37,308 bases of DNA, taken from Bacillota bacterium. Its GTDB lineage: Bacteria; Bacillota; Clostridia; Acetivibrionales; DTU013. A program made the translations under genes and the position numbers. This document shows, piece after piece, positions 147 to 32,709 of this stretch. Position 1 is the first letter of the stretch; each line of letters opens with the position of its first letter. Under the pieces are notes generated by a model, which saw nothing but the letters and a program-made list of their open reading frames with translations, did no database searches and was not told the DNA's origin. The stretch is from positions 1 to 37,308 of the forward strand of contig JAEZJL010000160.1 of assembly GCA_023415815.1 (NCBI GenBank), in the 5' to 3' direction.

Positions 147-417
147 AATCCACCTACCTTACAAAATATGTTTTAATATTGCCAGTTTTATGAAATTTCA
201 AACATGAGTGTATTCAGAGTTTCAAAGTTTGGTTCAGAGATATACCGGCTTGTCGGGACAAGCGTAACAGAACATATTCTATAAAAAACATATGAAACTT
301 CCTAAGTTAAGTTAAGGAAAACAATAACAAAGAATGATTCGTGAACACTACGTGTAAATTATAGCATTTGACCTTATGATTGTCAATATTCCGGCCGCGG
401 GGGATTTCATGAAAGGC

Positions 418-1188: not shown

Positions 1189-1713
1189 GTGTTATATATC
1201 GTGAATTTGAAACAGGAAATGAGGGAAATGTTCGAAAAGCATCCTGCCATGGAGTTTAACGAAAGGAACTCCAGATTTGAGGACGGGCTGCTCGAAAAAA
1301 TAATCAACCTGACCTTCGCCGGCCTTTGCACGTTCAGCAGCAGGCGCTGGCAGATCGTTGCCGTAAGGACCCCGCTTATGCTGCAGAAGCTCTACAGACT
1401 GCTGGACGATAGGAGAATTCTGGAGTCGTCGGTGGCTCTGCTGGTGACACACCCCATCCCCGGCCCGGATTCCGGTAGTTTTGAGGCCGACATAGGGCTG
1501 CTTTCGCTTTCTCTCGCTCATTCGGCCAAATATTACTGCATCGGTTCCTTCAGCACAAGGAATTTCAGCAGCGATGCACTTATAAGGGAATTTGCGCTGG
1601 AGCCGCTCTGCCCCGTTTACGCGGTCGCAGGCCTGGGGACCTATCAGGAAGCCTCCGTTCCGCTAGCCGCGCACGCGAGATATGTGTATTCAGACATAGT
1701 AAAAGAACTGTAA
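1189..1713 (+). CDS. Nitroreductase-family-like protein (divergent)
   Basis: The N-terminus resembles the nitroreductase fold pattern (RxSxRxF, LxxIIxxxxxxxxxxxxxxWxxVAV), and the size of ~170 aa fits. The start is uncertain: GTG 1189, GTG 1201 (11 nt after GAGG) or ATG 1219. Confidence 0.5.
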   Translation: MLYIVNLKQEMREMFEKHPAMEFNERNSRFEDGLLEKIINLTFAGLCTFSSRRWQIVAVRTPLMLQKLYRLLDDRRILESSVALLVTHPIPGPDSGSFEADIGLLSLSLAHSAKYYCIGSFSTRNFSSDALIREFALEPLCPVYAVAGLGTYQEASVPLAAHARYVYSDIVKEL

Positions 1714-1721
1714 GTAAACTG

Positions 1722-1730
1722 TGGTATAAT
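1722..1730 (+). promoter_or_regulatory. Candidate extended -10 box TGGTATAAT, 5 nt upstream of the minisatellite head
   Basis: Exact TGnTATAAT match. The same box in the same position relative to GGGGACACACC recurs at 31687-31695. No convincing -35 hexamer. Confidence 0.3.
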
Positions 1731-1735
1731 GGAGA

Positions 1736-2170
1736 GGGGACACACCTCTCCCGCCGACGGACTGAGCGTCGAGGTATGTCCCCTTTTGACGCTAAAGCTG
1801 GACTTGGATACACGGCTTTACGGGCTGGGTGCCGGAGTATGTCCCTTTTGGACGCTGAAGCTGGACTTGGATGCCCGGCTTTACGGGCTGGGTGCCGGAG
1901 TATGGGATCTTTTTTGACGAAAAACCTGGACTTGGATACACGGTTTTAGGGGCTAAGTGCCGGGGTATGGCCCCTTTTAACGCTGAAACTGGACTTGGAC
2001 CCGGCTTTAAGGACTAGGCCCCGGAGTATGGGACCTTTTTTGACGTAGAAACTGGACTTGGATACACGGCTTTAGGAGCTAAGTGCCAGGGTATGTCCCC
2101 TTTTAACGCTGAAGCTGGGCTGGGATACACGGCTTTTACGGGCTGAGCGCGGGAGTATGGCTTTTCAGGG
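1736..2170 (+). repeat. Minisatellite array 1: a ~38-nt unique head segment followed by ~6.5 direct units of 61-65 bp
   Basis: The unit start GTAT falls at 1774, 1837, 1900, 1965, 2026, 2091 and 2155, giving periods of 63, 63, 65, 61, 65 and 64. The consensus is GTATGTCCCCTTTTGACGCTGAAGCTGGACTTGGATACACGGCTTTACGGGCTGGGTGCCGGA. The whole unit is conserved, with no unique spacers. Confidence 0.9.
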
Positions 2171-2239
2171 GGTGGAAGGCAGCGGGGAGCTGTCTTTAGG
2201 TGGAGGGAAAGTGATTCCAAAAATAATGAGGTGTGTAAC

Positions 2240-3922
2240 ATGACGGATGCGTTTTTTTATACAATACTGGCTATCCTGGCGGCGGCGGTCATAGTCACGA
2301 TGGCATTGGTCAATAAGAGACGGGCGGTAGGCAAGCTGAGGCGGACTATAGAGGAACGCTGGGGCAGGCCTCCCGCGGCGGACTACAGCAGCGGGTCTAT
2401 GCAGGCTATATCAGGCTATTTTTACAGCTATTCCGAAAAGCGCCCCGAAAAATTTCTGATAGATGACATCACCTGGAACGACCTTGACATGGACAACGTC
2501 TTCAAGCGTATAAATAACACCTGCTCAACGGTAGGGGAGGAATATTTGTACAAGCTCCTGAGGGAGCCTGTTTTCGAGGAAGCGGAGCTGAAGGAGCGGG
2601 AAAGGCTCATCGAGCATTTCCGGAATAATCCGGCACAGAGACAGAAGCTTCAGCTTTACCTTGCGAGGCTGGGCAAGAGAAGGTTTTCAGGGATTTCCGA
2701 TTATTTTTTCAATGATAAAAAGGATGTCTCTATGCGGAGCCTCAGGTACATACTCCAGCTTGCGGCGCTGCTTGCCTCGCCGCTGGTCATGATCGCGGAT
2801 ATATCGACGGGCCTACTGCTGCTCATAGTGATGTTCATCGCAAATATGACGACTTACTATAAAGCCAAAAACGATCGAGAGGTTTACATGGAATCCCTGA
2901 GCTATGTCGTAAACCTCATCAATTACTCCAAAAAAATAGCGCATGACAGCATACAGGGGATCGAAGAGTACACGGCCGAGCTCAAAAAAACCTCGGATAA
3001 AATCAAAAGCTTCGGTATAAAATCCTTCTACCAGCTTTTTTACCAGACCGGCGATATATTCCTCGAGCCCATCAAGGTCCTTTTCTTCATTGAACTGATA
3101 GCTTTCGAGAGCCTGTTGAAAAAGATTTTCAAGTACAGGGAGGAAATACGGCAGCTTTACGAGATCGTAGGCAAGCTTGACAGCATGATCTCAGCCGCCT
3201 CATACAGGGAGAGCCTGGACTATTATGCGGTCCCCTCCTTCACGGAAAGCAAGCCGGCGGCGCTGTCCTTCAAGGATGCCTATCATCCTCTCATTAAAAA
3301 TCCGGTCGCGAATTCCATTGAGACCTCAACCTCGGTATTGATCACAGGCTCGAACGCCTCCGGAAAATCCACCTTCCTGAAAACTGCCGCCATCAATGCG
3401 ATCCTTGCTCAGACGATCAATACCTGCCTCGCCAGGGAGTACCGTTCAAGCCGCTTTATGATATACACCTCCATGGCTCTGAAGGATAATCTTTCAAATA
3501 ACGAAAGCTATTACATCGCTGAAATTAAGTCGCTGAAAAGGCTGTTTGACAATATGAATGACGAGATCCCCGTCCTCTGTATGATAGACGAGGTACTGCG
3601 CGGCACCAATACCATTGAGAGGATAGCCGCTTCCTCGGAGGTGCTGCGGCGGCTCGCGGGCGGCAATTGCCTCTGCGTCGCGGCCACTCACGATATCGAG
3701 CTGGTTTCCATACTGAAAAACTTCTACGGCAATTATCACTTCCAGGAAAGCTTCCGCGACAATGACATCATTTTCGATTACAAAATATATCCCGGGAAAT
3801 CCACCACACGCAACGCCATTAAGCTGCTGCGCCTGATAGGCTATTCGGAAACCGTAGTGGCTTCGGCCGAGGAAAGGGCCGAAGGCTTCGCCTCGGAGGG
3901 CAAGTGGAGGGAGATACAATAA
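2240..3922 (+). CDS. MutS-related ATPase (domain V only) with N-terminal and internal transmembrane segments
   Basis: ORF 2231..3922. ATG 2240 lies 7 nt after GAGGTG. Motifs: Walker A GSNASGKST, MutS-type Walker B MIDEVLRGT and VAATHD. Hydrophobic segments: FFYTILAILAAAVIVTMALV and LAALLASPLVMIADISTGLLLLIVMFIANM. No mismatch-binding domain I is evident. Confidence 0.8.
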   Translation: MTDAFFYTILAILAAAVIVTMALVNKRRAVGKLRRTIEERWGRPPAADYSSGSMQAISGYFYSYSEKRPEKFLIDDITWNDLDMDNVFKRINNTCSTVGEEYLYKLLREPVFEEAELKERERLIEHFRNNPAQRQKLQLYLARLGKRRFSGISDYFFNDKKDVSMRSLRYILQLAALLASPLVMIADISTGLLLLIVMFIANMTTYYKAKNDREVYMESLSYVVNLINYSKKIAHDSIQGIEEYTAELKKTSDKIKSFGIKSFYQLFYQTGDIFLEPIKVLFFIELIAFESLLKKIFKYREEIRQLYEIVGKLDSMISAASYRESLDYYAVPSFTESKPAALSFKDAYHPLIKNPVANSIETSTSVLITGSNASGKSTFLKTAAINAILAQTINTCLAREYRSSRFMIYTSMALKDNLSNNESYYIAEIKSLKRLFDNMNDEIPVLCMIDEVLRGTNTIERIAASSEVLRRLAGGNCLCVAATHDIELVSILKNFYGNYHFQESFRDNDIIFDYKIYPGKSTTRNAIKLLRLIGYSETVVASAEERAEGFASEGKWREIQ

Positions 3923-3929
3923 AATTATC

Positions 3930-3964
3930 CTTAAGGGGAAACCAGCCCTTGTTTTCCCCTTAAG
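3930..3964 (+). terminator. 12-bp stem-loop 8 nt after the MutS-like stop; possible terminator but no U-tract
   Basis: CTTAAGGGGAAA-ccagcccttgt-TTTCCCCTTAAG. An identical hairpin follows the murA stop at 20076-20110. Confidence 0.35.
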
Positions 3965-4066
3965 AATCCCCATCCTTCCCCGTATTACATTCCCACGGCT
4001 TCCAGGGTCAGGGCCTTGGTTCAGCCGGGCCGCAACAAACGCGCCGTCCATGGCGCGATAGTTGCT

Positions 4067-4089
4067 AAAACCGGCATCGTGCCGGTTTT
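4067..4089 (+). terminator. Rho-independent terminator-like hairpin
   Basis: AAAACCGGCA-tcg-TGCCGGTTTT: a GC core stem with a T-run. It is mirrored at 19950-19972. Confidence 0.5.
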
Positions 4090-4111
4090 CCCCGGCTCTT
4101 GTGTTTGCCCT

Positions 4112-4298
4112 GGCCGGGGAAGCCGTAAAGTCATGTAATAAAGGGGCATTTTTAGCGGGTAAGGCTTCGTAGACTGCTTCGGAGGCGTTTATTAGTTTTT
4201 TGTGTTGTCGCGGCCGGATAAGCCGTAAATCATGCAATAGATGGGGCAGTTTAGCGGGCAGGGCTTTAAAGGAGACTTCATAGCCTGCTTCGAAGCCG
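4112..4298 (+). repeat. Two tandem ~76-87 bp units inside arm A
   Basis: GGCCGGGGAAGCCGTAAAGTCATGTAATAAAGGGGCATTTTTAGCGGG... (4112-4187) is repeated as GGCCGGATAAGCCGTAAATCATGCAATAGATGGGGCAGTTTAGCGGG... (4212-4298). Both units are also present in arm B. Confidence 0.75.
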
Positions 4299-4307
4299 CT
4301 TATAAGT

Positions 4308-4537
4308 GTTTGAAAAAGCTTCGTGATGTACTCGGTGGGAAAAACCGACGACGCGGTGAAATGGACACGATGTCCATTTCAGGGACAAACTGAGCCATGG
4401 ACGGCGAATTTGTCCCGACCGCCAAAGGAGGTTTTTCCCACCGCTAAGCGCACAGAAGCTTTTTCATTGCGCCCTGACAGCCCCCGCGGCGTCTGAGCGG
4501 CGCGTTTTCCGCCGCTTTTCCGCGGTGAAAAGCGGCA
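4308..4537 (+). repeat. Palindromic ~230-bp element, copy E1 (MITE-like or structured-RNA-like)
   Basis: The outer arms GAAAAAGCTTC (4312-4322) and GAAGCTTTTTC (4455-4465) pair. So do the inner arms CGGTGGGAAAAACC (4333-4346) and GGTTTTTCCCACCG (4430-4443). Internal hairpins lie at 4358-4380 and 4382-4416. A 3' hairpin CCGCTTTTC-cgcggt-GAAAAGCGG follows. Confidence 0.85.
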
Positions 4538-4604
4538 TTATAAGTAAAGTAAAGCGGCCTTTTTCAGACCGCTTTGTTAATATGAAGTAATTGCCTTATT
4601 TCAA

Positions 4605-4718
4605 TTAAAGCCCTCTGGCTTCAAGCTTCAGAATCTCCACTTTGCCGGTCTTTTCCAAGGAGAGGTCCGCATCGCTCCCTCCGAAATAGTCGTATGCGGC
4701 TGTCTTCTGTAGATGGGT
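4605..4718 (-). pseudogene. Relic of the 3' end of an unidentified gene (about 38 codons plus stop and terminator-like hairpin)
   Basis: The minus strand reads ...THLQKTAAYDYFGGSDADLSLEKTGKVEILKLEARGL*, followed by the hairpin GCGGTC-tgaaaaa-GGCCGC and TTTACTTTACTT. Upstream, the frame runs into element copy E2. A shorter version (TGKAEILKLEARRL*) sits in arm B. Confidence 0.3.
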
Positions 4719-4954
4719 AAGTATTTGAAAAAGCTTCGTGATGCACTCGGCGGGAAAAACCGACCACGCGGTGAAATGGACACGGTTCCATTTCAGGGAC
4801 AAACTGAGCCATGGACGGCGAATTTGTCCCGACCGCCAGAGGAGGTTTTTCCCACTGCTAAGTGCATAGAAGCTTTTTCATTGCGCCCTGACAGCCTCCG
4901 CAGCGTCTAAGCGGCGCGCTTCCCACCGCTTTTCCGCGGTGAAAAGCGGCTTAT
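4717..4954 (+). repeat. Palindromic ~230-bp element, copy E2
   Basis: It aligns along its full length with E1 with scattered substitutions. It ends 3 nt from the stop codon of the PepSY/SLH gene. Confidence 0.85.
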
Positions 4955-4957
4955 ATT

Positions 4958-7132
4958 CTATACCTGCAAATAATTGTATATCATCACTGCCGCACCGGCC
5001 CTTGTGAGCTTAGTTTTCGGGCCGAAGCTCCCGTCGCTTCCGGCAGTTATCTTCAAGCCCGCCGCCAGGGCGACGTAGCCTGTCAGCGCCGGAGATATTT
5101 CACTCTTGTCCTTGAAGTTTATAATGTATATATCCTTCAAATCTGCGGCCTTGTCGAGCTTCATGGCCCTAATGATGAATTTGACGGCGTCCTCATTTGT
5201 AACAGCCGCATCAGGGGCCTTCTCGCCATTCTTCACCACGCCCTCGCGGGTCAGATAGGCATACAGCTGGTCGATATCCTGCGCTGCGCTCTTCTGGGTG
5301 ATTACAGGCCCATAATAACTCATGGTCTTTGAAAGCAGCGTGAGGAAATCCTTCTGATTAATCTCAGTTCCGGGTTTGAATTCCGCCCCGTCAAGGTTGA
5401 CCCCGTTTTCCGCAAGCACCGATATCTGCTTCTCCGCAGGGTCTCCCTTTATGTCGGTATATAAAACGGTTTTCTGCTCCGTATAAGGGTTACCGTTGTA
5501 ATCCACCACTCCTCCGGTGAAGGCGTCAAGGAACAGAGGTATTCCCATCTTGAGCACGTATGCAAGCTCAACCTCAGCCCTGGTCTGCGCCGGCTGCGGG
5601 AGTATCTTAGCGTCCGCCGCCTGGGCAGGCGGCTTCACCTTATATTCAAGGGTGAGTCCGATACCTGAAAAAAGTTTGGCATAGGCGGTATCTGCCGGAA
5701 TAACCTTGTCTATTGCCGGAAAATCGGTGTTGATCCAGTTAAGGTTGAAGCTTGTTACAATACCGTTGACAGCGTCATAATTTATATACATTCCGTTGTC
5801 CGGAAAGGTTATCCCGTTAACGATCCTGTCGTAGGTAAAGTTGTAATTCTGGGGCTTGGCGGTCCCGCTGTATACAATGTTGTTTCCGGCCAGCTCGTTG
5901 TATTTTACCTGTTTGAAATATTCAGGATAGGATTTCGACAGAAATTCTTCAACCGCAGCTTTTGATGCCGCAAGGTCGTACTTGGCCTTGGCGTCCTGCA
6001 CATACGGAACGCTCCTGTAGAAGGTTGTTATTTCGCCGGTATTTGCATTTATGGTTGCGCTTATGAAGGAATTGTTACCGGGGTTTTCCTTGTCCTCCTT
6101 GTTGAAATTCAGACTCCAGATGTATTGGCTCCCGTCGGGGTAGTTCTGGTTGAGGTTGGAATACGTGAGCTTGAAATCGTCCGTGAGTCCGAGGAATTTA
6201 GCGGCGCGGGCCGTCTTCTCGGCTTCCTCTACGGTTTTCAGCTTTGCGGCCTCCTCAACGGCCTTAAGCTCATCCGGATTAAGGACGACATTCGCCGGTT
6301 CCGCCTTCGCTGATTCAGCGAAAGCAACGTTCATTCCCATACCCTTATCATAAAGGCCTCCGTAATATACGGCACCCACCTGTATCCTCTTGCCGGTAAA
6401 CGCATTTAAGGCATAGGAGGAGTTTTCGTAAACCGGAGTATACACCAGATAGGTTTTTAGCTTATTGTCAATATAGCTGTACTTGTAGATAAGCTTGAGC
6501 CCCAGCTCTGTTTTATATGCTTCCTCCGCCTGCGCGAGGGTTTTAATGCCGGACGAGGCGGGGAATGCCGCCACATCCGTCCATTGGCGGTTGTAGTTCA
6601 GCAGCTTGCCGGTCTCGCGGTTTATGCTCAGGTAAACCGTGTCGTTGTAAAACGGTATTCCGTTCACGACCCTGTAATAACTGAGGTAATAGCTGGTATC
6701 CTGGAGGTTGCCCTGGGTGTTCTCCTGATACTTCAGCTGCGAGGGGAGCCCGGGGTCAAGCTTCTTTATGAATTCGTCGGCTTTGGCCTTTGCCTCCTGC
6801 CTGCTTATTGCGGGAAGCTTTCTGGCAATCGCGTAATCGTCCGGCGAATAGGTATCATAGCCTAAAATCATACCGGTGTCGTCTATCCTCACGTTTACGC
6901 TTTTTGCATTTACGGTATCCTTGCTGTTCCAGTTGAGATAGAATATCTTCCTCGTACCCTCGGTACTGATGCTGGAAGTAAATTTATAGTCGGCAGGGAT
7001 ATCAAACTTTGTCTTGGCAGTCTTTATCGCGTTTTCAAGGGCTTTGTCCATATCCGCGGCAAAAGCCTGCAGCGGTATGGCCAGAGTAAAAATCACGGCC
7101 ATTGTAGTGATCGTTGCAAGAATTCTTTTCAA
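4958..7132 (-). CDS. Secreted PepSY-like-repeat protein with C-terminal S-layer-homology (SLH) repeats
   Basis: ORF 4958..7201. The best start is TTG 7132, six nt after GAGGTGG, giving the signal peptide (M)KRILATITTMAVIFTLAIPLQAFA. The C-terminus has SLH-like segments (YTDIKGDPAEKQISVLAENGV..., FKDKSEISPALTGYVALAAGLKI...FGPKTKLTRAGAAVMIYN). Confidence 0.75.
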   Translation of the reverse strand: MKRILATITTMAVIFTLAIPLQAFAADMDKALENAIKTAKTKFDIPADYKFTSSISTEGTRKIFYLNWNSKDTVNAKSVNVRIDDTGMILGYDTYSPDDYAIARKLPAISRQEAKAKADEFIKKLDPGLPSQLKYQENTQGNLQDTSYYLSYYRVVNGIPFYNDTVYLSINRETGKLLNYNRQWTDVAAFPASSGIKTLAQAEEAYKTELGLKLIYKYSYIDNKLKTYLVYTPVYENSSYALNAFTGKRIQVGAVYYGGLYDKGMGMNVAFAESAKAEPANVVLNPDELKAVEEAAKLKTVEEAEKTARAAKFLGLTDDFKLTYSNLNQNYPDGSQYIWSLNFNKEDKENPGNNSFISATINANTGEITTFYRSVPYVQDAKAKYDLAASKAAVEEFLSKSYPEYFKQVKYNELAGNNIVYSGTAKPQNYNFTYDRIVNGITFPDNGMYINYDAVNGIVTSFNLNWINTDFPAIDKVIPADTAYAKLFSGIGLTLEYKVKPPAQAADAKILPQPAQTRAEVELAYVLKMGIPLFLDAFTGGVVDYNGNPYTEQKTVLYTDIKGDPAEKQISVLAENGVNLDGAEFKPGTEINQKDFLTLLSKTMSYYGPVITQKSAAQDIDQLYAYLTREGVVKNGEKAPDAAVTNEDAVKFIIRAMKLDKAADLKDIYIINFKDKSEISPALTGYVALAAGLKITAGSDGSFGPKTKLTRAGAAVMIYNYLQV

Positions 7133-19514: not shown

Positions 19515-19748
19515 ATATGCCGCTTTTCACCGCGGAAAATCGGCGGAAAACGCGCCGCTCAGATGCCGCGGGGCTGTCAGGGCGCAATGAAAAAGCTTCT
19601 ATGCACTTAGCGGTGGGAAAAACCTCCTTTGGCGGTCGGGACAAATTCGCCGTCCATGGCTCAGTTTGTCCCTGAAATGGACATCGTGTCCATTTCCCCG
19701 CGTCGTCGGTTTTTCCCACCGAGTGCATCACGAAGCTTTTTCAAACAC
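19515..19748 (-). repeat. Palindromic ~230-bp element, copy E3
   Basis: Its reverse complement aligns along its full length with E1, including both arm pairs and the internal hairpins. Confidence 0.85.
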
Positions 19749-19949
19749 TTATAAGCGGCTTCGAAGCAGCCTCCGAAGTGCTACCTGCTAAAAAATGCTC
19801 CAATTATTGCATAACTTACGGCATTCCCGTCCACGATAACACAAAAACTAATAAACGCCTCTGAAGCCTCCTGCAAAGCCCTGCCCACTAAATGCCCCAT
19901 TTATTACATGACTTACGGCTTCCCGGCCAGGGCAATACAAGAGCCGGGG

Positions 19950-19972
19950 AAAACCGGCACGATGCCGGTTTT
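19950..19972 (-). terminator. Rho-independent terminator-like hairpin (mirror of 4067-4089)
   Basis: The minus strand reads AAAACCGGCA-tcg-TGCCGGTTTT. It lies about 145 nt downstream of the murA stop. Confidence 0.5.
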
Positions 19973-20075
19973 AGCAACTATCGCGCCACGGACGGCGCGT
20001 TTGTTGCGACCCGGCTGATATCAGGGACCTGGCCCTGGAAGCCGTAGGAATGTAATACGGGGAAGGAAGGGGATT

Positions 20076-21427: not shown

Positions 21428-22180
21428 TCAGTACTCCGTAGTAATCACAGGAGTTGCCAGCCACAGGTATGTCTTGTCTTCGTATGAATTGTACCTTATG
21501 GCAAGATTGAGATTTACCTTGCTGCCATTGTCGTCGACAGCCTCCTTTATGGCGCCGGAAAAGGCGGATACGCTTATGAGGCTGCCCTCCCTTATCCCCT
21601 CTACCTTTTTGGCGTCAGCCTTTGCAAAAATTCGGACGCACGCCTCATTCAGGGCGCTGTTTTCTTTTTTCCCTTCAAAGCTCCCTGTGATGCAGGAATT
21701 GAACTTCGGCCTTATGCCGTGTTTGTTGAGCGCCTTCTCCAGCACGACTCTGTCTCCGGCAAGATCCGGAGTGCGAGAGGTGTCCACCAGGCTTATTGCC
21801 ACGTAGCTCTCTCCGGAATCCCCGCTGTCTTTACCTTCAACTATATTAAAATGTATTCTCCTGCCGCCGCCGAGACTGCAGTCCAGTTCCTTACCGGCCG
21901 TACTGGGGCTGCCCGCGGAATCAATATCCGGATTAACCTCCGCTGCTCCGAGGTCCTTCAATACGTCTTTTATCATCGCTTTGCTGAAATCCTCTCCTGA
22001 CTTGCCCCATCCCCCGATTTTGCCGCGAAGATATAATTCGGAACTGACCGTCGCGGCTCCCGAGCTTTTAAACGCATCATAGAGGATTTTTTCGGGGGGA
22101 TTTGAAACTGCCTGCATTTTTATTATAAAAATAGAAATAATAAGAACAAAAAGTGTGATAATTATAGATACCTTTTTCAT
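21428..22180 (-). CDS. YwmB-like protein (DUF1779 type) with an N-terminal signal or anchor
   Basis: The call rests mainly on size (250 aa), the N-terminal hydrophobic segment and its position directly upstream of murA. B. subtilis ywmB-murAA-spoIID has the same order. Confidence 0.45.
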   Translation of the reverse strand: MKKVSIIITLFVLIISIFIIKMQAVSNPPEKILYDAFKSSGAATVSSELYLRGKIGGWGKSGEDFSKAMIKDVLKDLGAAEVNPDIDSAGSPSTAGKELDCSLGGGRRIHFNIVEGKDSGDSGESYVAISLVDTSRTPDLAGDRVVLEKALNKHGIRPKFNSCITGSFEGKKENSALNEACVRIFAKADAKKVEGIREGSLISVSAFSGAIKEAVDDNGSKVNLNLAIRYNSYEDKTYLWLATPVITTEY

Positions 22181-22293
22181 ATATATCCCCCCTTGTTTAC
22201 ATCATATCTGAATTATTGCCTCTTTGGATGGGGTATATACATGAGAAAATTTGACCCTGCTTCACTAAAATTCAATTACATTTCGTATACTTT

Positions 22294-22625
22294 CGCTTCA
22301 GCGTCAAAAGCCACATCCCATGATGGGCAGCCCGTTTTGGTGAAGGATGTGTGTCCAAGCAATATCAGCGGCAAAAGAGGGTATGCCTCTCGGGGCTCGA
22401 CCGCCAGGCCGGGTATTAAGTCCGGCTTTAGCGTCAAAAAAGAGACATGCCTCGTCGCTCAGCCGTTAAGCCGGGTATTCAAGTCCGGCTTCAGCGTCAA
22501 AAGAGGGCATACCTCTCGCGCTCGACCGCTAAGCCGGGTATTCAAGTCCAGCTTTAGCGTCAAAAGGGGACATACCTCGACGTACAGCCCGTCGACGGGA
22601 GAGGTGTGTCCCCGTCCCCTCTCCC
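22294..22625 (-). repeat. Minisatellite array 2: head plus ~5 units, reverse orientation
   Basis: The reverse complement reads GGGAGAGGGGACGGGGACACACCTCTCCCGTCGACGGGCTGTACGTCGAG, then GTATGTCCCCTTTTGACGCTAAAGCTGGACTTGAATACCCGGCTT... Unit marks on the plus strand are at 22571, 22508, 22446, 22382 and ~22313. Units decay with distance from the head. Confidence 0.9.
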
Positions 22626-29500: not shown

Positions 29501-31582
29501 CGTGTCCGTCCTTGAATTCATGTATATGTCATAGTATATGTTATAGTTATACAGCGATGTATTATAAGTGCTTGTATAAGCGTTCCAGTCAAGGTTCATT
29601 ACCTTGTCGAACTGCAAATCCACGTAGTTGACCGGCGGAGTGACGGAGGTATCCTTTCCGTTGGCCGCAAGCCCAAAGCTCATAGGCAGTGGAACATCCA
29701 GCTCCTCTCCGTTCAGGGTAGTGAAGCTTACAACGATGGATTTATCCGACATCTTTTCCGTCAGGGTCGTCCCGGCATCCGCCGCCGTCGTGGTATACAT
29801 CTGCAGATAATAGACCGTATTGGGTAGGAGGAAGGAAGGATAATTCTCAGGATTGGGAATATCCCCGGAGACGCCGCCGGCCTTTTCCCACCTGAACAGG
29901 TCAAAGGCGTCCAGGGTGTAGTACATCCGGTTTCCGACCACCGTGATTTTTGCATTGTCCGCGTTTATATATTTCACAAGCCTGAATTTGGGCGGATAGT
30001 TGCCCCAATGCATGCCGTTGACATAAAGAGCGGTGTCTGCGGCAATATCGGTCTGGCTCGTGCTCAACAGAAAATGAAAAGACAGACTCGAGCCGGTTGT
30101 ACTCCAGTTTAAAGGCTTCTCCCAGGATATTGTTACATCGCTGGATCTTATATTTATGGGAGTTCCCCCCGAAGGCGGAGCTTTCTGCTCCGTATGGAGC
30201 ATCCTGTTCGTTATCGCTATTCCCATGGGAAGCGGCGGCCTGCTGGTATCCACTACCAGCTTATACGGCATTTTCAGCGATTCAAGCCTGTCATTGGCGC
30301 CATCGGATTTTACCACAACCCTGTAAAACACCTCATTGTTAGGGTTGACGCCCGGTATGACGGTGACGGCGTAATCGCTGCCGCTGAAGTTAGAATCGAC
30401 CATGGTAGCCTTTACGGGCCAATCGCCCGGCAGGGATGAGCTGTTCGCCGCCTGCACCTCATAGTATAGCCTTGGCAGGTCGAGGCTTCCCTGATTTATT
30501 TTATATATCTTTACATAAATGTTGTTTGCGTTGTCCTTGGTGAGCTGGAACCTGATCGGAGTATACGTGTAGGGAACCGCTCCCGACAGCAAGCTGCCGT
30601 TATAATCTGATAGGTTTCCGACAGTAACCGCGTCCACATCCCCTCCGGAGGGATCATTATAATCGGGCATGATATTCATATAATAAACAGTACCCGGCAG
30701 CAGCTCATCGTCCGGCAGGGCGTTTTCGTTGCCGGGCAGGCGGGGGGGCACCATTGAACCTACATCGCTTCTGCCCCATAATTCAAAGCTCACATAATCG
30801 CTCGCATCGGGTAATGATACGGCAGCCGGGCTGGTGATGCTCTCGGATACGTTTGCGGTATATCCGCCGCCGTTGCTTTTAACAATAATCGATGACTTAT
30901 CGGAACCTGAGTTAAGCTTTTCCTCAACAGTCGAAATATTAATCTTGAAATCGAGCTTTGAAATTTGCTTTCCGTTGTTATAGATGCCTTTAATCGCGTC
31001 CTCCATCTGCTTCAGCATATCGGGATCATTTGCCAGAATAAATTTCCCCGTGGTGGTAGAATCATCGAACCATATTCGCGGTATCTTCCATTTGAGCTTG
31101 AGCTTGGGATTCTTTCCGGATTCCCTGCCCCCTCCCGGTATTTCATCATAGGGCTGCGCGGGAGCTTCGGAATAGAAGCTGATCTTCGGCAGGTAATACA
31201 GCAAACCCTCACCGATCCTGTTGCCGGTGGGATCGCCGTTTACGTCAAGAATATCGCTGTCATACAGGGCCACTCTGAGATCATAAATATAATCAGGCTT
31301 CAAACCGGTTATCGACGCCGTGTTCGTAGTCTGCTTGAGGACGATTTTCTGCATCGTACCCAAATTCGTGTTGTCGGGCGCATGATAGGTAATAACCGCA
31401 GCCTTGATCCCGGTAAGCTGCCCGACCTCCCAGTGAAAGTCAAGCTTGCCGTTGCTGTAGCTGTTCACAACGATTTTTACCGGCTCGGCCGCCGCGAACG
31501 ACGGCGTGAAGTCGCTGAAAAAGACTCCATATGTGAGTACTGCCGCAAGTATTGCCGCAACAGTTCTTCTTATTTTTTTCAT
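26600..31582 (-). CDS. Giant secreted protein (1660 aa) with multiple FN3-like modules and C-terminal SLH repeats
   Basis: Signal peptide MKKIRRTVAAILAAVLTYGVFFSDFTPSFAAA. FN3-like blocks include LDFHWEV...YDLRVALY, VTFTWRRQENDVAYQLIR and LGFFWTDG...YDVRVF. The C-terminus has VPDGYWAKDYIGRLTSKYDL...FMPDNKVTCREVILIYEKV and FTPEGSMTRAEVTVAFVRLLE. There are 54 bp between its stop and the start of the next gene. Confidence 0.85.
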   Translation of the reverse strand: MKKIRRTVAAILAAVLTYGVFFSDFTPSFAAAEPVKIVVNSYSNGKLDFHWEVGQLTGIKAAVITYHAPDNTNLGTMQKIVLKQTTNTASITGLKPDYIYDLRVALYDSDILDVNGDPTGNRIGEGLLYYLPKISFYSEAPAQPYDEIPGGGRESGKNPKLKLKWKIPRIWFDDSTTTGKFILANDPDMLKQMEDAIKGIYNNGKQISKLDFKINISTVEEKLNSGSDKSSIIVKSNGGGYTANVSESITSPAAVSLPDASDYVSFELWGRSDVGSMVPPRLPGNENALPDDELLPGTVYYMNIMPDYNDPSGGDVDAVTVGNLSDYNGSLLSGAVPYTYTPIRFQLTKDNANNIYVKIYKINQGSLDLPRLYYEVQAANSSSLPGDWPVKATMVDSNFSGSDYAVTVIPGVNPNNEVFYRVVVKSDGANDRLESLKMPYKLVVDTSRPPLPMGIAITNRMLHTEQKAPPSGGTPINIRSSDVTISWEKPLNWSTTGSSLSFHFLLSTSQTDIAADTALYVNGMHWGNYPPKFRLVKYINADNAKITVVGNRMYYTLDAFDLFRWEKAGGVSGDIPNPENYPSFLLPNTVYYLQMYTTTAADAGTTLTEKMSDKSIVVSFTTLNGEELDVPLPMSFGLAANGKDTSVTPPVNYVDLQFDKVMNLDWNAYTSTYNTSLYNYNIYYDIYMNSRTDTPFVLVGSTENLHGDIIFTGADDPASTSIKARVIKFTTASAINLFGSSLKPNTTYYFKAKTRLVITKKSDNSSTMKESLDTAILPVTTIVLDINPPDDSTRKPLAPTDFSIASDKDGNPMISGSSVTFTWRRQENDVAYQLIRTSRKVSPADLLDAHASDPEYASFLQAYDLPSDGIDNGLVYLDPAPGSGRQTDPGKFTYDSATKICTYTVDRRMFPNKLYYFSLKAVRVTRTPAGYTAGAESVWVSIPVTTHLIQAPERLEAVSSAELGFFWTDGTPGMTAEDYTVYAKNSNDTEYKQVTRSQTTIIKDPDGMTYYGRLLNLKLNSSYDVRVFKGAGSSGTLVYEKSGLQTRDGYHELEVKWTGAPVDDFSRYEIAIMAEGSSDYTILSGNDLEYYSDKDGKLLPYYTEETPLTVGADNIYFHARIKGAEVVLPGGLTTHQPLRSNVKYYVKVRAVKVDPADIAIVSYSKYIGPVNSRTEFNQDDYDDIDDGEKEEAIFLDRIKQLEQGYYWRIAIDNGTADRILLKGDRVVNALQNTSEDTFTIDMNAININMDKDEVYVPVSVVRAMNSSGKSLLIKTPGAEFLLRPDTLDASENEQIKELLAKTGVKDLYLRLIVARTDAQPTNFPTSGERISSVNDLEVQAIGSSRTDSELKKLFYEKLYDEDKGLVGEKLNILKNAYIGSGSGSSKVMEEYTERLVKMIESELSDYIDDTIESIRLASATQNIVEFAAPVSASLNCNDVQGTKLPYALYDGTPSWQKITNNTQEPGSVTINVIKTGKYVVLLMQGGMKGVPDGYWAKDYIGRLTSKYDLSDVFSGMSTSFMPDNKVTCREVILIYEKVTGRSAANSGLDLKQKTVRLGLDGIINPNGAMKNVKREETAAVLLKLFSSKKGVSADSLRPGGNIYINDDTDIEDAYYNPVMMIVDMGIMSTDSSGNFTPEGSMTRAEVTVAFVRLLETTGDM

Positions 31583-31686
31583 CGGTATACCCCCATGTTA
31601 TATGAAACATATGATTTTATAGAAACTGCCGTATCGGCATATTTCAGTTATTATATCGGCAAAAAATGGGCTGCGTTTAACTCTTA

Positions 31687-31695
31687 TGTTATAAT
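31687..31695 (+). promoter_or_regulatory. Candidate extended -10 box TGTTATAAT, 4 nt upstream of the minisatellite head
   Basis: Exact TGnTATAAT match, in the same position relative to GGGGACACACC as at 1722-1730. Confidence 0.3.
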
Positions 31696-31699
31696 GTAA

Positions 31700-31980
31700 G
31701 GGGACACACCTCTCCCGTCGGCGGACTGTGCGTCGAGGTATGTCCCCTTTCGACGCTGAAGCTGGACTTGATACCCGGCCTTGACGGGCCGAACGTTGGG
31801 ATATGTTCCTTTTGACGCTGAAGCTGGACTTGAATACCCGGCTTTAGAGGCTGGGCGTCGGGATATGTCCCCTTTTGACGTTAAAGCTGGACTTGATACC
31901 CGGCTTTAGAGGCTGGGCGTCGGGGTATGTCCCCTTTTGACGCTGAAGCTGGACTTGAATATCCGGCTTAGGCGGACTAT
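31700..31980 (+). repeat. Minisatellite array 3: head plus ~4.5 units of 62-63 bp
   Basis: The head is GGGGACACACCTCTCCCGTCGGCGGACTGTGCGTCGAG. Units are marked by TATG at 31739, 31802, 31864 and 31926. The array runs into the GAAGGAGG ribosome-binding site of the response regulator. Confidence 0.9.
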
Positions 31981-31995
31981 GTGAAGGAGGTTTGG

Positions 31996-32709
31996 ATGAA
32001 ACAGAAGATTCTTGTTGTGGATGACGAGGCGGCGATTTGCGATTTGCTTAAGATAGGCCTGGAGGCCGAGGGCTATGATGTTGCGGCGGCAAACGACGGG
32101 AGGGAGGCGCTGCTGAAGCTGGCGTCCTGGAAGCCGGACCTTCTGATCTTGGACCTTATGCTGCCCGGTTTGAATGGCTTCGACATATGTAAAAGGGTCA
32201 CTGCCGAAAATCCGATACCTATCATCATGCTGACCGCAAAAGCCGATTTAATAGACAAGGTGCTCGGTCTTGAGCTGGGAGCGGACGATTACGTCACAAA
32301 GCCGTTCCACATGCGCGAGCTGGCGGCCAGGGTCAAGGCATTGCTGAGGAGAGTCGGGGCGGAAGCCAGGACAGCTGTGCCCGGCAAACTGAAAAACGGA
32401 AGGCTCGAGCTCATTCCCGAAACCCGCAGAGTCATGCTTGACGGCGCCGAGCTTGAGCTGTCCGTCAAGGAATACGATCTGCTTTTCTTCTTTATCAATA
32501 ATATAGACCGGGTTTTTACCAGGGAGGCTCTGCTCGAAAGAGTCTGGGGCTATGATTTCACAGGCGATACGAGGACCGTCGACGTCCACATCCAGAGGCT
32601 GCGAAGCAAGCTGAAGGGCGGCGCGTACGACGGTTCATGCATACATACCGTTTTTGGCGTGGGCTACAGGATGATGAAACTTGAAGAAAGCGAGGGACCT
32701 GCTTCATGA
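31996..32709 (+). CDS. OmpR-family response regulator
   Basis: ATG 31996 lies 5 nt after GAAGGAGG. Motifs: ILVVDDE, LLILDLMLPGLNG, PIIMLTAK, GADDYVTKPF and the winged-helix region TRTVDVHIQRLRSKL. Confidence 0.9.
   Translation: MKQKILVVDDEAAICDLLKIGLEAEGYDVAAANDGREALLKLASWKPDLLILDLMLPGLNGFDICKRVTAENPIPIIMLTAKADLIDKVLGLELGADDYVTKPFHMRELAARVKALLRRVGAEARTAVPGKLKNGRLELIPETRRVMLDGAELELSVKEYDLLFFFINNIDRVFTREALLERVWGYDFTGDTRTVDVHIQRLRSKLKGGAYDGSCIHTVFGVGYRMMKLEESEGPAS

Follow-up and report, generated by a model that had tools for sequence, protein, structure and literature searches.

We consider it fairly probable that the tandem array lying upstream of an OmpR-type response-regulator gene in the DNA analysed here (a stretch of 37,308 nucleotides, hereafter the window) is one copy of an interspersed structured repeat, restricted to its lineage and having collateral effects on mRNA. 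Judged from its sequence, it is probably a BOX/SPRITE-like element that acts as a 5' hairpin and a weak terminator, with a variable number of units. It is not a set of binding sites for the neighbouring response regulator. The window belongs to an uncultured, spore-forming, flagellated Firmicute and encodes SpoIIT, SpoIID, YpeB-like, SLH surface and flagellar rod proteins. The nearest named relatives of its proteins are those of Clostridiales MAGs, Ruminiclostridium and Pseudobacteroides, at ~49% identity.

Organization of the arrays and of the repeat module

The repeat is dispersed, with three arrays in the 37 kb of the window (Table 1) and two elements within 10 kb of the relative L018. At the regulator locus (array 3), a sequence-only reading had described a -10-like box, a 4-nt gap, a head and tandem units that run into GAAGGAGG-N5-ATG, and each of these parts is present. 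The 4 nt that separate TGTTATAAT from the head are GTAA, and the head opens with GGGGACACACCTCTCCCGTCGGCGG at 31700 (also given as GGGGACAC...). In this head GGGGACACACCUC is paired with GAGGUAUGUCCCC, and the inner stem within them is CGGCG/CGUCG. The borders of the units were set by splitting the array at the conserved linker, head plus linker occupying 31700-31763, and U-tracts recur along the array at 31748-31751, 31808-31811, 31871-31874 and 31933-31936. Tandem Repeats Finder reports the array as 31726-31969 (period 62, 3.9 copies, 84% matches). The claim that the array ends exactly at the ribosome-binding site of the regulator was borne out, the partial unit ending at 31982 and GAAGGAGG beginning at 31983. 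The GGCGGAC of this truncated last unit is a direct repeat of the GGGGAC found at the left edge of the array. The gene that starts at ATG 31996 encodes an OmpR-type regulator with Response_reg and Trans_reg_C domains, and a gap of 413 bp separates it from the divergent surface-protein gene.

Table 1. Features of the three repeat arrays of the window
Feature	Position	Strand	Remarks
Predicted extended -10 promoter TGTTATAAT of the response-regulator operon	31687-31695	+	From sequence; identical in the array-less sister species L023
Head hairpin, array 3	31700-31747	+	Predicted fold -23.7 kcal/mol, stem next to the U-tract; 93.8 bits with the covariance model
U-tract and conserved linker UUUCGACGCUGAAGCU, array 3	31748-31763	+	Best-conserved segment of the repeat family
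Three tandem units, array 3	31764-31825 (62 bp), 31826-31888 (63 bp), 31889-31950 (62 bp)	+	
Truncated last unit, array 3, ending ...GGCGGACTATGT	31951-31982	+	
Shine-Dalgarno GAAGGAGG (31983-31990), spacer TTTGG (5 nt) and ATG (31996)	31983-31998	+	OmpR-type response regulator
Array 1: TGGTATAAT (1722-1730), head (1736-1783), five units of 63-65 bp (1800-2116) and degenerate seventh module	1722-2165	+	
Array 2: duplicated GGGGAC, head (22613-22566) and four further modules	22294-22619	-	

Array 1 is located upstream of a MutS-like gene (ATG 2240), and its TATAAT (1725-1730) is followed after 5 nt by the head at 1736. The spacing between box and head, said to be the same at loci 1722 and 31687, is thus similar but not identical, being 5 nt at the first and 4 nt at the second. 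Array 2 shares the head but has no TATAAT box, carrying only TGTGAAAAT 7 nt ahead of the duplicated GGGGAC, and it starts ~12-18 nt past the stop codon of a 1309-aa SLH gene. The head 18-mer GGGGACACACCTCTCCCG opens each array, with three exact occurrences in the window for 0.00 expected, and 12 copies of the unit core GACGCTGAAGCTGGACTTG are present when up to 3 mismatches are allowed, for 0.01 expected. Arrays of the locus 3 unit are also listed by Tandem Repeats Finder at 1774-2160 (+) and 22389-22579 (-).

All three arrays of the window are co-oriented with the next gene downstream, i.e., the MutS-like gene at 2240, SpoIIT at 22180 (-) and the regulator at 31996. Array 2 is more plausibly a 3' element belonging to the SLH gene, since it starts just past the SLH stop codon and SpoIIT has a promoter-like sequence of its own. 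This sequence of the SpoIIT (DUF1779) gene is sigma-F-like, reads GTATA-N15-GGCAATAAT and lies downstream of array 2 (window ~22215-22260, minus strand); it is also conserved in L026 (~150-190, minus strand).

Across the family, the head is a 48-nt GC-rich hairpin (5' arm GGGGACACACCUC, 3' arm GAGGUAUGUCCCC, inner stem CGRCG/CGUCG) that is followed by U3-4 and then by GACGCURAAGCU, the conserved linker being UUUUGACGCURAAGC (~16 nt). The units measure 62-68 bp and read GGACUUGR ... 3' arm ... UUUUGACGCURAAGCU; from their sequence they look like degenerate copies of the 3' half of the head plus the linker, in which a good 5' arm has been lost. The best-conserved stretch of the family is the junction UUUUGACGCURAAGCY-GGACUUGG. 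A small helix is proposed in the linker, one position of which is U-A, U-G or C-G depending on the head. Unit identity is 0.79-0.83 inside arrays versus 0.60-0.74 across arrays, and this greater likeness of the units inside arrays points to local amplification.

The predicted folds of the heads, whose stems end right at the U-run, range from -21 to -25 kcal/mol, and those of the internal units from -3 to -14 kcal/mol, the unit hairpins of array 3 being weak (-4 to -6 kcal/mol). Folding of the whole array was significant for locus 3 (z = -3.9) and not for locus 1 (z = -0.5). The outer stem of the heads shows compensatory changes across lineages. The heads of L018 read GGGGACAGTTCT...AGAACTGTCCCC and the L028 variant GGGGACGGTTCT...AGAACCGTCCCC; compared with the heads of the window, both members of pairs 7, 9 and 10 in the outer stem are changed, and at position 8 a G-C pair replaces the C.A mismatch. 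In the alignment of seven heads, 93.9% of the cells pair; shifting the 3' partners by 1-3 columns lowers this figure to 43-53%. For the comparison of individual pairs, the stems were tabulated without the MAFFT alignment, which put the divergent heads out of register. The covariation is real but shallow, since only three sequence types stand behind the seven-head comparison. Sequence comparison indicates that the structure of the head is under selection. Between species in which the flanking protein has 72% identity, that of the head reaches ~94%, and the linker is nearly invariant; both facts speak against plain selfish DNA and for sequence-specific recognition, and they keep the alternative of a dedicated leader (see below) alive.

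The number of units is variable, from a head with one unit to a head with at least six across the elements. Contigs L015 and L016 come from the same or a near-identical strain, and L015 is 99.99% identical to the window over 9.9 kb. In these short-read assemblies, where a collapse of repeats could underlie differences in copy number, array 3 of L015 has one additional unit (63 bp) carrying its own SNP, and L020 exceeds L019 by at least two units, their encoded MutS-like proteins being identical. Unit number might be used as a strain marker for these uncultured Clostridia.

The resident regulator promoter and the element in related species

Syntenic loci from eight related species were retrieved through homologues of the MutS-like protein and of the histidine kinase. 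In the sister species whose kinase is 88% identical (L023, L024 and L025), the region upstream of the regulator is identical through ...CTCTTATGTTATAATGTAAGGGGAC (TATAATGTAAGGGGAC), and it then continues with GGTGAAAATACGGAGGCTTGGATG straight to the ribosome-binding site, without array. The sequences indicate that the TGTTATAAT box is the regulator's own promoter and lies outside the repeat. The proposal that box and head form one functional module stands only for the head, which is real and not a chance sequence; the box is separable and corresponds to a resident promoter.

Since the sister promoter is identical and the array is absent from it, array 3 can be described as an indel of ~270 bp located where transcription is predicted to begin. 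The motifs bordering it are GGGGAC (left) and GGCGGAC (right), and the empty site of L023 keeps GGGGAC. Sequence alone would fit either an insertion in the window lineage or a deletion between the GGAC repeats in the sister species. Both the array and GGGGAC are missing from L026, the species with the 60% identical kinase. The leader of the sister regulator (L023 8477-8503) begins with GGGGACGGTGAAAATACGGAGG, whose first 9 nt are those of the 5' arm in the L028 variant (GGGGACGGT); they could have been left behind by an element since lost, in which case the site would not be a naive target.

These comparisons modify the interpretation of the divergent region. The array had been supposed to fill most of the control region shared with the surface-protein gene; it is found instead past the -10 box, in what is presumably transcribed as the leader, and the ~100 bp that lead from the box to the start codon of the surface-protein gene are conserved with the sister species without any repeat. 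The array is not specific for the regulator, as no array is found at the regulator locus of the relatives with kinases 88% and 60% identical. A link with the adjacent response regulator is also unlikely because the array occurs both before the MutS-like gene and after the SLH gene.

At the MutS-like locus, the element is present in L029 (79% identical to the window; the contig breaks inside the element), L018 (77%), L019 and L020 (72%) and L021 and L022 (71%), and it is absent from the sister L017 (85%), from L028 (62%) and from L027 (58%). The presence of the element is therefore patchy among relatives, and it has been kept at this locus in five species, a retention that a selected function fits as well as neutral persistence does. 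The MutS-like leader of L017 (1887-1973) lacks the element but contains reiterated CTGTTCT motifs, like the 3' arm of the large L018b hairpin, and from their sequence these motifs may be a decayed remnant of the element.

A third gene, encoding a CxxCxxCC protein, carries the element in a relative. In L018, a head, a linker, a large hairpin and a second linker are found directly after TGCTATAATT, and in the window the same promoter TGCTATAATT is followed by an unrelated short leader without element. Thus, the head lies 4-6 nt past a -10 box at three independent loci (MutS-like, regulator and, in a relative, CxxCxxCC).

A covariance model built from the seven heads was used to score candidate heads elsewhere. 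The scan of 185,579 species genomes with the head 18-mer yielded 13 matches, about the level expected by chance, two of which are real heads according to the model; these are solitary heads in two other Bacillota MAGs. One of them (L008, Bacillota MAG Ch29) is located at 3546-3607 on the minus strand, scores 59.6 bits and contains the exact 18-mer. It is antisense to, and in frame within, an ORF (1686-5072, +) of 1128 aa encoding a PHP-domain/UvrD-like helicase, where the 48 nt of the head amount to 16 extra codons (...KGTFLDAHSADGRGVSPD...); from the sequence, it may be a repeat insertion tolerated in a coding gene. The other (L012, MAG OH_SBB_121; 39.5 bits) lies 7 nt past the stop codon of a carboxyltransferase gene. 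In L028 (2900-3075, minus strand), downstream of a DUF4901/SLH gene, three tandem 5' arms GGGGACGGTTCTCCTGTTAA are followed by two tandem 3' arms AGAACCGTCCCCTTGTTAA, an arrangement whose sequence shows it to be another version of this hairpin, with amplification of the arms themselves.

Relationship with known repeat families

The arrays had no match in Rfam 15 at gathering score, and the region 31550-32050 searched at E <=10 gave only a chance match of 12.9 bits. Full-text searches of the literature returned no description of these sequences or of similar clostridial repeats. The unit-core scan of JGI metagenomes returned a single match, due to chance, inside a eukaryotic GAPDH gene, and nothing similar appeared in viral contigs (two pattern scans) or in plasmids (distant BLAST).

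The closest architecture is that of the BOX elements of Streptococcus pneumoniae, which are organized as boxA-(boxB)n-boxC, with a strain-variable number of boxB and a predicted RNA fold, and which have been reported to raise or lower the expression of neighbouring genes (PMC3049150). Like BOX, the clostridial repeat is a dispersed intergenic composite, with a unique 5' module followed by a variable tandem internal module, a predicted RNA fold and a location near gene starts, and in both of them spurious ORFs arise in long arrays. However, the clostridial repeat has no boxC-like conserved 3' module that pairs with the 5' module, its tails being different at every locus, and its units are degenerate copies of the head, whereas the internal module of BOX is unrelated to its 5' module. 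It also lacks terminal inverted repeats matching an IS, and its heads lie 4-6 nt past a -10 box at the three loci mentioned above. The hosts are uncultured Clostridia, an unrelated lineage in which homology with BOX would be unexpected, so the comparison concerns architecture and not sequence.

In the pneumococcal SPRITE, a dispersed element resembling a Rho-independent terminator, a long duplex precedes a U-rich tract (PMC3049150). The head is likewise a dispersed long GC-rich duplex with a uridine-rich tract that is often found just past stop codons (array 1, array 2 and L012), but its U-tract has just 3-4 U and a tandem array is attached to it. In addition, array 3 and L018b are located in divergent promoter regions, where there is no upstream gene to terminate. 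The absence of a conserved 3' module and of IS-like terminal repeats indicates a new family of the BOX/SPRITE general kind rather than a BOX homologue.

Other families resemble the element less. REPs are transcribed extragenic palindromes of ~35 nt, clustered in alternating orientation and tied to RAYT transposases, that stabilise mRNA or attenuate transcription. The REP/BIME sequences of enterobacteria share with the clostridial repeat the patchy distribution of extragenic palindromes between relatives, but all the clostridial modules are direct repeats and no RAYT is encoded in the available DNA; the window contains no transposase-like gene. As regards MITEs, the sole inverted repeat of the element is the head stem and there is no clear target duplication, array 3 being flanked by GGGGAC/GGCGGAC, which a duplication would fit as well as a deletion between GGAC repeats. 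The aprE leader and ermC provide the 5'-terminal stabiliser hairpins of Bacillus mRNAs, which are placed at, or a few nt from, the 5' end of the transcript. The head is expected at the same 5' position from its spacing to the -10 box; those hairpins are, however, single and locus-specific, without dispersal or tandem units. Finally, Rickettsia palindromic elements are in-frame insertions in ORFs, which recalls the head found in frame in the helicase-like ORF of L008, although this is one case only and there is no sequence kinship.

Possible effects on expression and alternative readings

Sequence and general knowledge of Firmicute transcription and RNA decay allow a mechanism to be proposed for the interspersed repeat. 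From an extended -10 of the type TGnTATAAT, transcription would start ~7 nt downstream, within GGGG, placing the head at the extreme 5' end of the mRNA. The element would be transcribed as part of the 5' leader of the operon, and since it stands directly after the resident promoter, the regulator leader would grow from ~30 nt to ~296 nt. At this position the head hairpin would shield the mRNA from decay by 5'-end-dependent RNases, and the head (-24 kcal/mol), with its U3-4, would halt some fraction of the polymerases. The units would lengthen the leader and add weak hairpin-U modules, and their number would shift by unequal recombination or slippage between the 62-63 bp repeats, a change that would produce heritable quantitative variation in expression.

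The proposed termination would be weak. An intrinsic terminator is defined by a GC-rich stem and at least 5 U in 8 positions; the head has such a stem, but its tail UUU(U/C)GACG falls short of that number of U. No head or unit module was listed by the terminator pattern scan, the U-tract of the head having just 3-4 U. Regarding translation, the unpaired probability of the Shine-Dalgarno calculated in silico was 0.15-0.44 with the arrays versus 0.43-0.44 without them, with no clear or consistent effect, and a sequestration of the Shine-Dalgarno by CCCCUUUU was rejected on this ground.

The alternative that best survives, although we regard it as rather unlikely, is a dedicated cis-regulatory RNA leader, in which a trans-acting protein or RNA would recognise the linker UUUUGACGCURAAGC or the head loops and would control termination, stability or translation for a set of genes, the extra units being extra binding sites and UUUUGACGCUGAAGCUGGAC a candidate target. 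The primary sequence of linker and head is indeed conserved far past structural need; the arrays are co-oriented with the downstream gene in the three cases of the window and lie 4-6 nt past a -10 box at three loci, and the element has been kept at the MutS-like locus in five species. However, the downstream genes are unrelated in function (a MutS-like protein, a two-component system and a CxxCxxCC protein), the regulator locus of close relatives has no element, further copies are found 3' of genes and antisense within an ORF, and no candidate factor is encoded nearby.

A bolder idea, to which we concede little probability, is that of a mobile, domesticated 5'-leader cassette that would go specifically to the points where transcription begins, whether through the single-stranded DNA exposed in open promoter complexes or, say, through the swapping of entire leaders; the invariant UUUUGACGCURAAGC would be recognised by a factor of its own, and unit number would work as a heritable expression rheostat for genes with nothing else in common. 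If the start-site placement or the trans-acting reader were true, the element would constitute a natural portable leader, tunable by copy number.

The array could also be imagined as a serial attenuator, each unit being a partial intrinsic terminator, so that read-through would drop steeply with unit number, perhaps relieved by a processive antiterminator. A hairpin with U4-6 does recur every 62-63 nt and the strong head hairpin has U's directly after it; nevertheless, this is improbable, because only the head has a stem of terminator grade, the internal hairpins are mostly of -3 to -6 kcal/mol with 4 U, and none of the modules passes the terminator pattern scan.

Very improbable, in turn, is an array of tandem small-RNA genes (RNAs of ~63 nt with hairpin and U-tail), or a sponge titrating an RNA-binding protein. 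Every module ends with a hairpin and a U-run, as the 3' ends of small RNAs do, and the units contain GGA motifs (CUGGAC, UUGGAU). But the GGA motifs are not conserved in the units of L019/L021 (GGUA, GGCA), the internal hairpins are weak, and the array of locus 3 passes straight into a ribosome-binding site. A promoter inside each unit was likewise rejected, as the sequence 17 nt past TTGACG reads TACACG or TACCCG and no credible -10 element exists. Sigma-54 sites, a CsrA sponge and PyrR or RAT antiterminator sites were discarded too, their motifs being misfits or unconserved across species.

As for DNA operators through which the adjacent OmpR-type regulator would control itself and the divergent surface-protein gene, the location directly upstream of the regulator gene and inside the 413-bp divergent gap is in their favour, but we give them next to no credit since the array belongs to the leader, past the -10 box, its units recur at two further loci that are neither linked nor related, the orthologous operons (kinases 88% and 60% identical) have no array, and the covariation of the stem indicates a folded single strand and not a duplex site.

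With the interspersed repeat as the preferred reading, the intergenic minisatellites of this lineage would have to be annotated as a repeat family and not as regulator-specific control sites, and spurious ORFs have already been called in them. The 63-bp units can be read as open frames of 21-aa repeats at 1729-1917 (+), 1776-1949 (+) and 31781-31909 (+), and in L016 the gene caller annotated a 62-aa ORF within the array. By their sequence, these open frames are artefacts of the repeat period, unconserved between arrays. A coding repeat (63 bp being 21 codons) was rejected, since the 62-bp units of locus 3 break the frame and the GGAG lies only 1 nt before the in-unit AUG. Six-frame translations of the arrays, compared with the protein database in search of spurious ORFs called in related arrays, gave no matches.

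The window contains other repeated sequences. Four matches to the Rfam family TwoAYGGAY (50-71 bits) form two divergent pairs, at 3982-4140 (-) and 4310-4467 (+) and at 19587-19744 (-) and 19901-20058 (+), and an unscored 94% copy is found at 4718-4950. The matches sit in repeated blocks of ~240 bp that fill a 1-kb spacer, this spacer being 63-72 bp in L018 and L019. Across 125 kb of seven related loci there was no TwoAYGGAY match. The 3' end of L029 carries the beginning of a block resembling the TwoAYGGAY-bearing repeat, and from their sequence the TwoAYGGAY blocks look like a second lineage-specific interspersed element.
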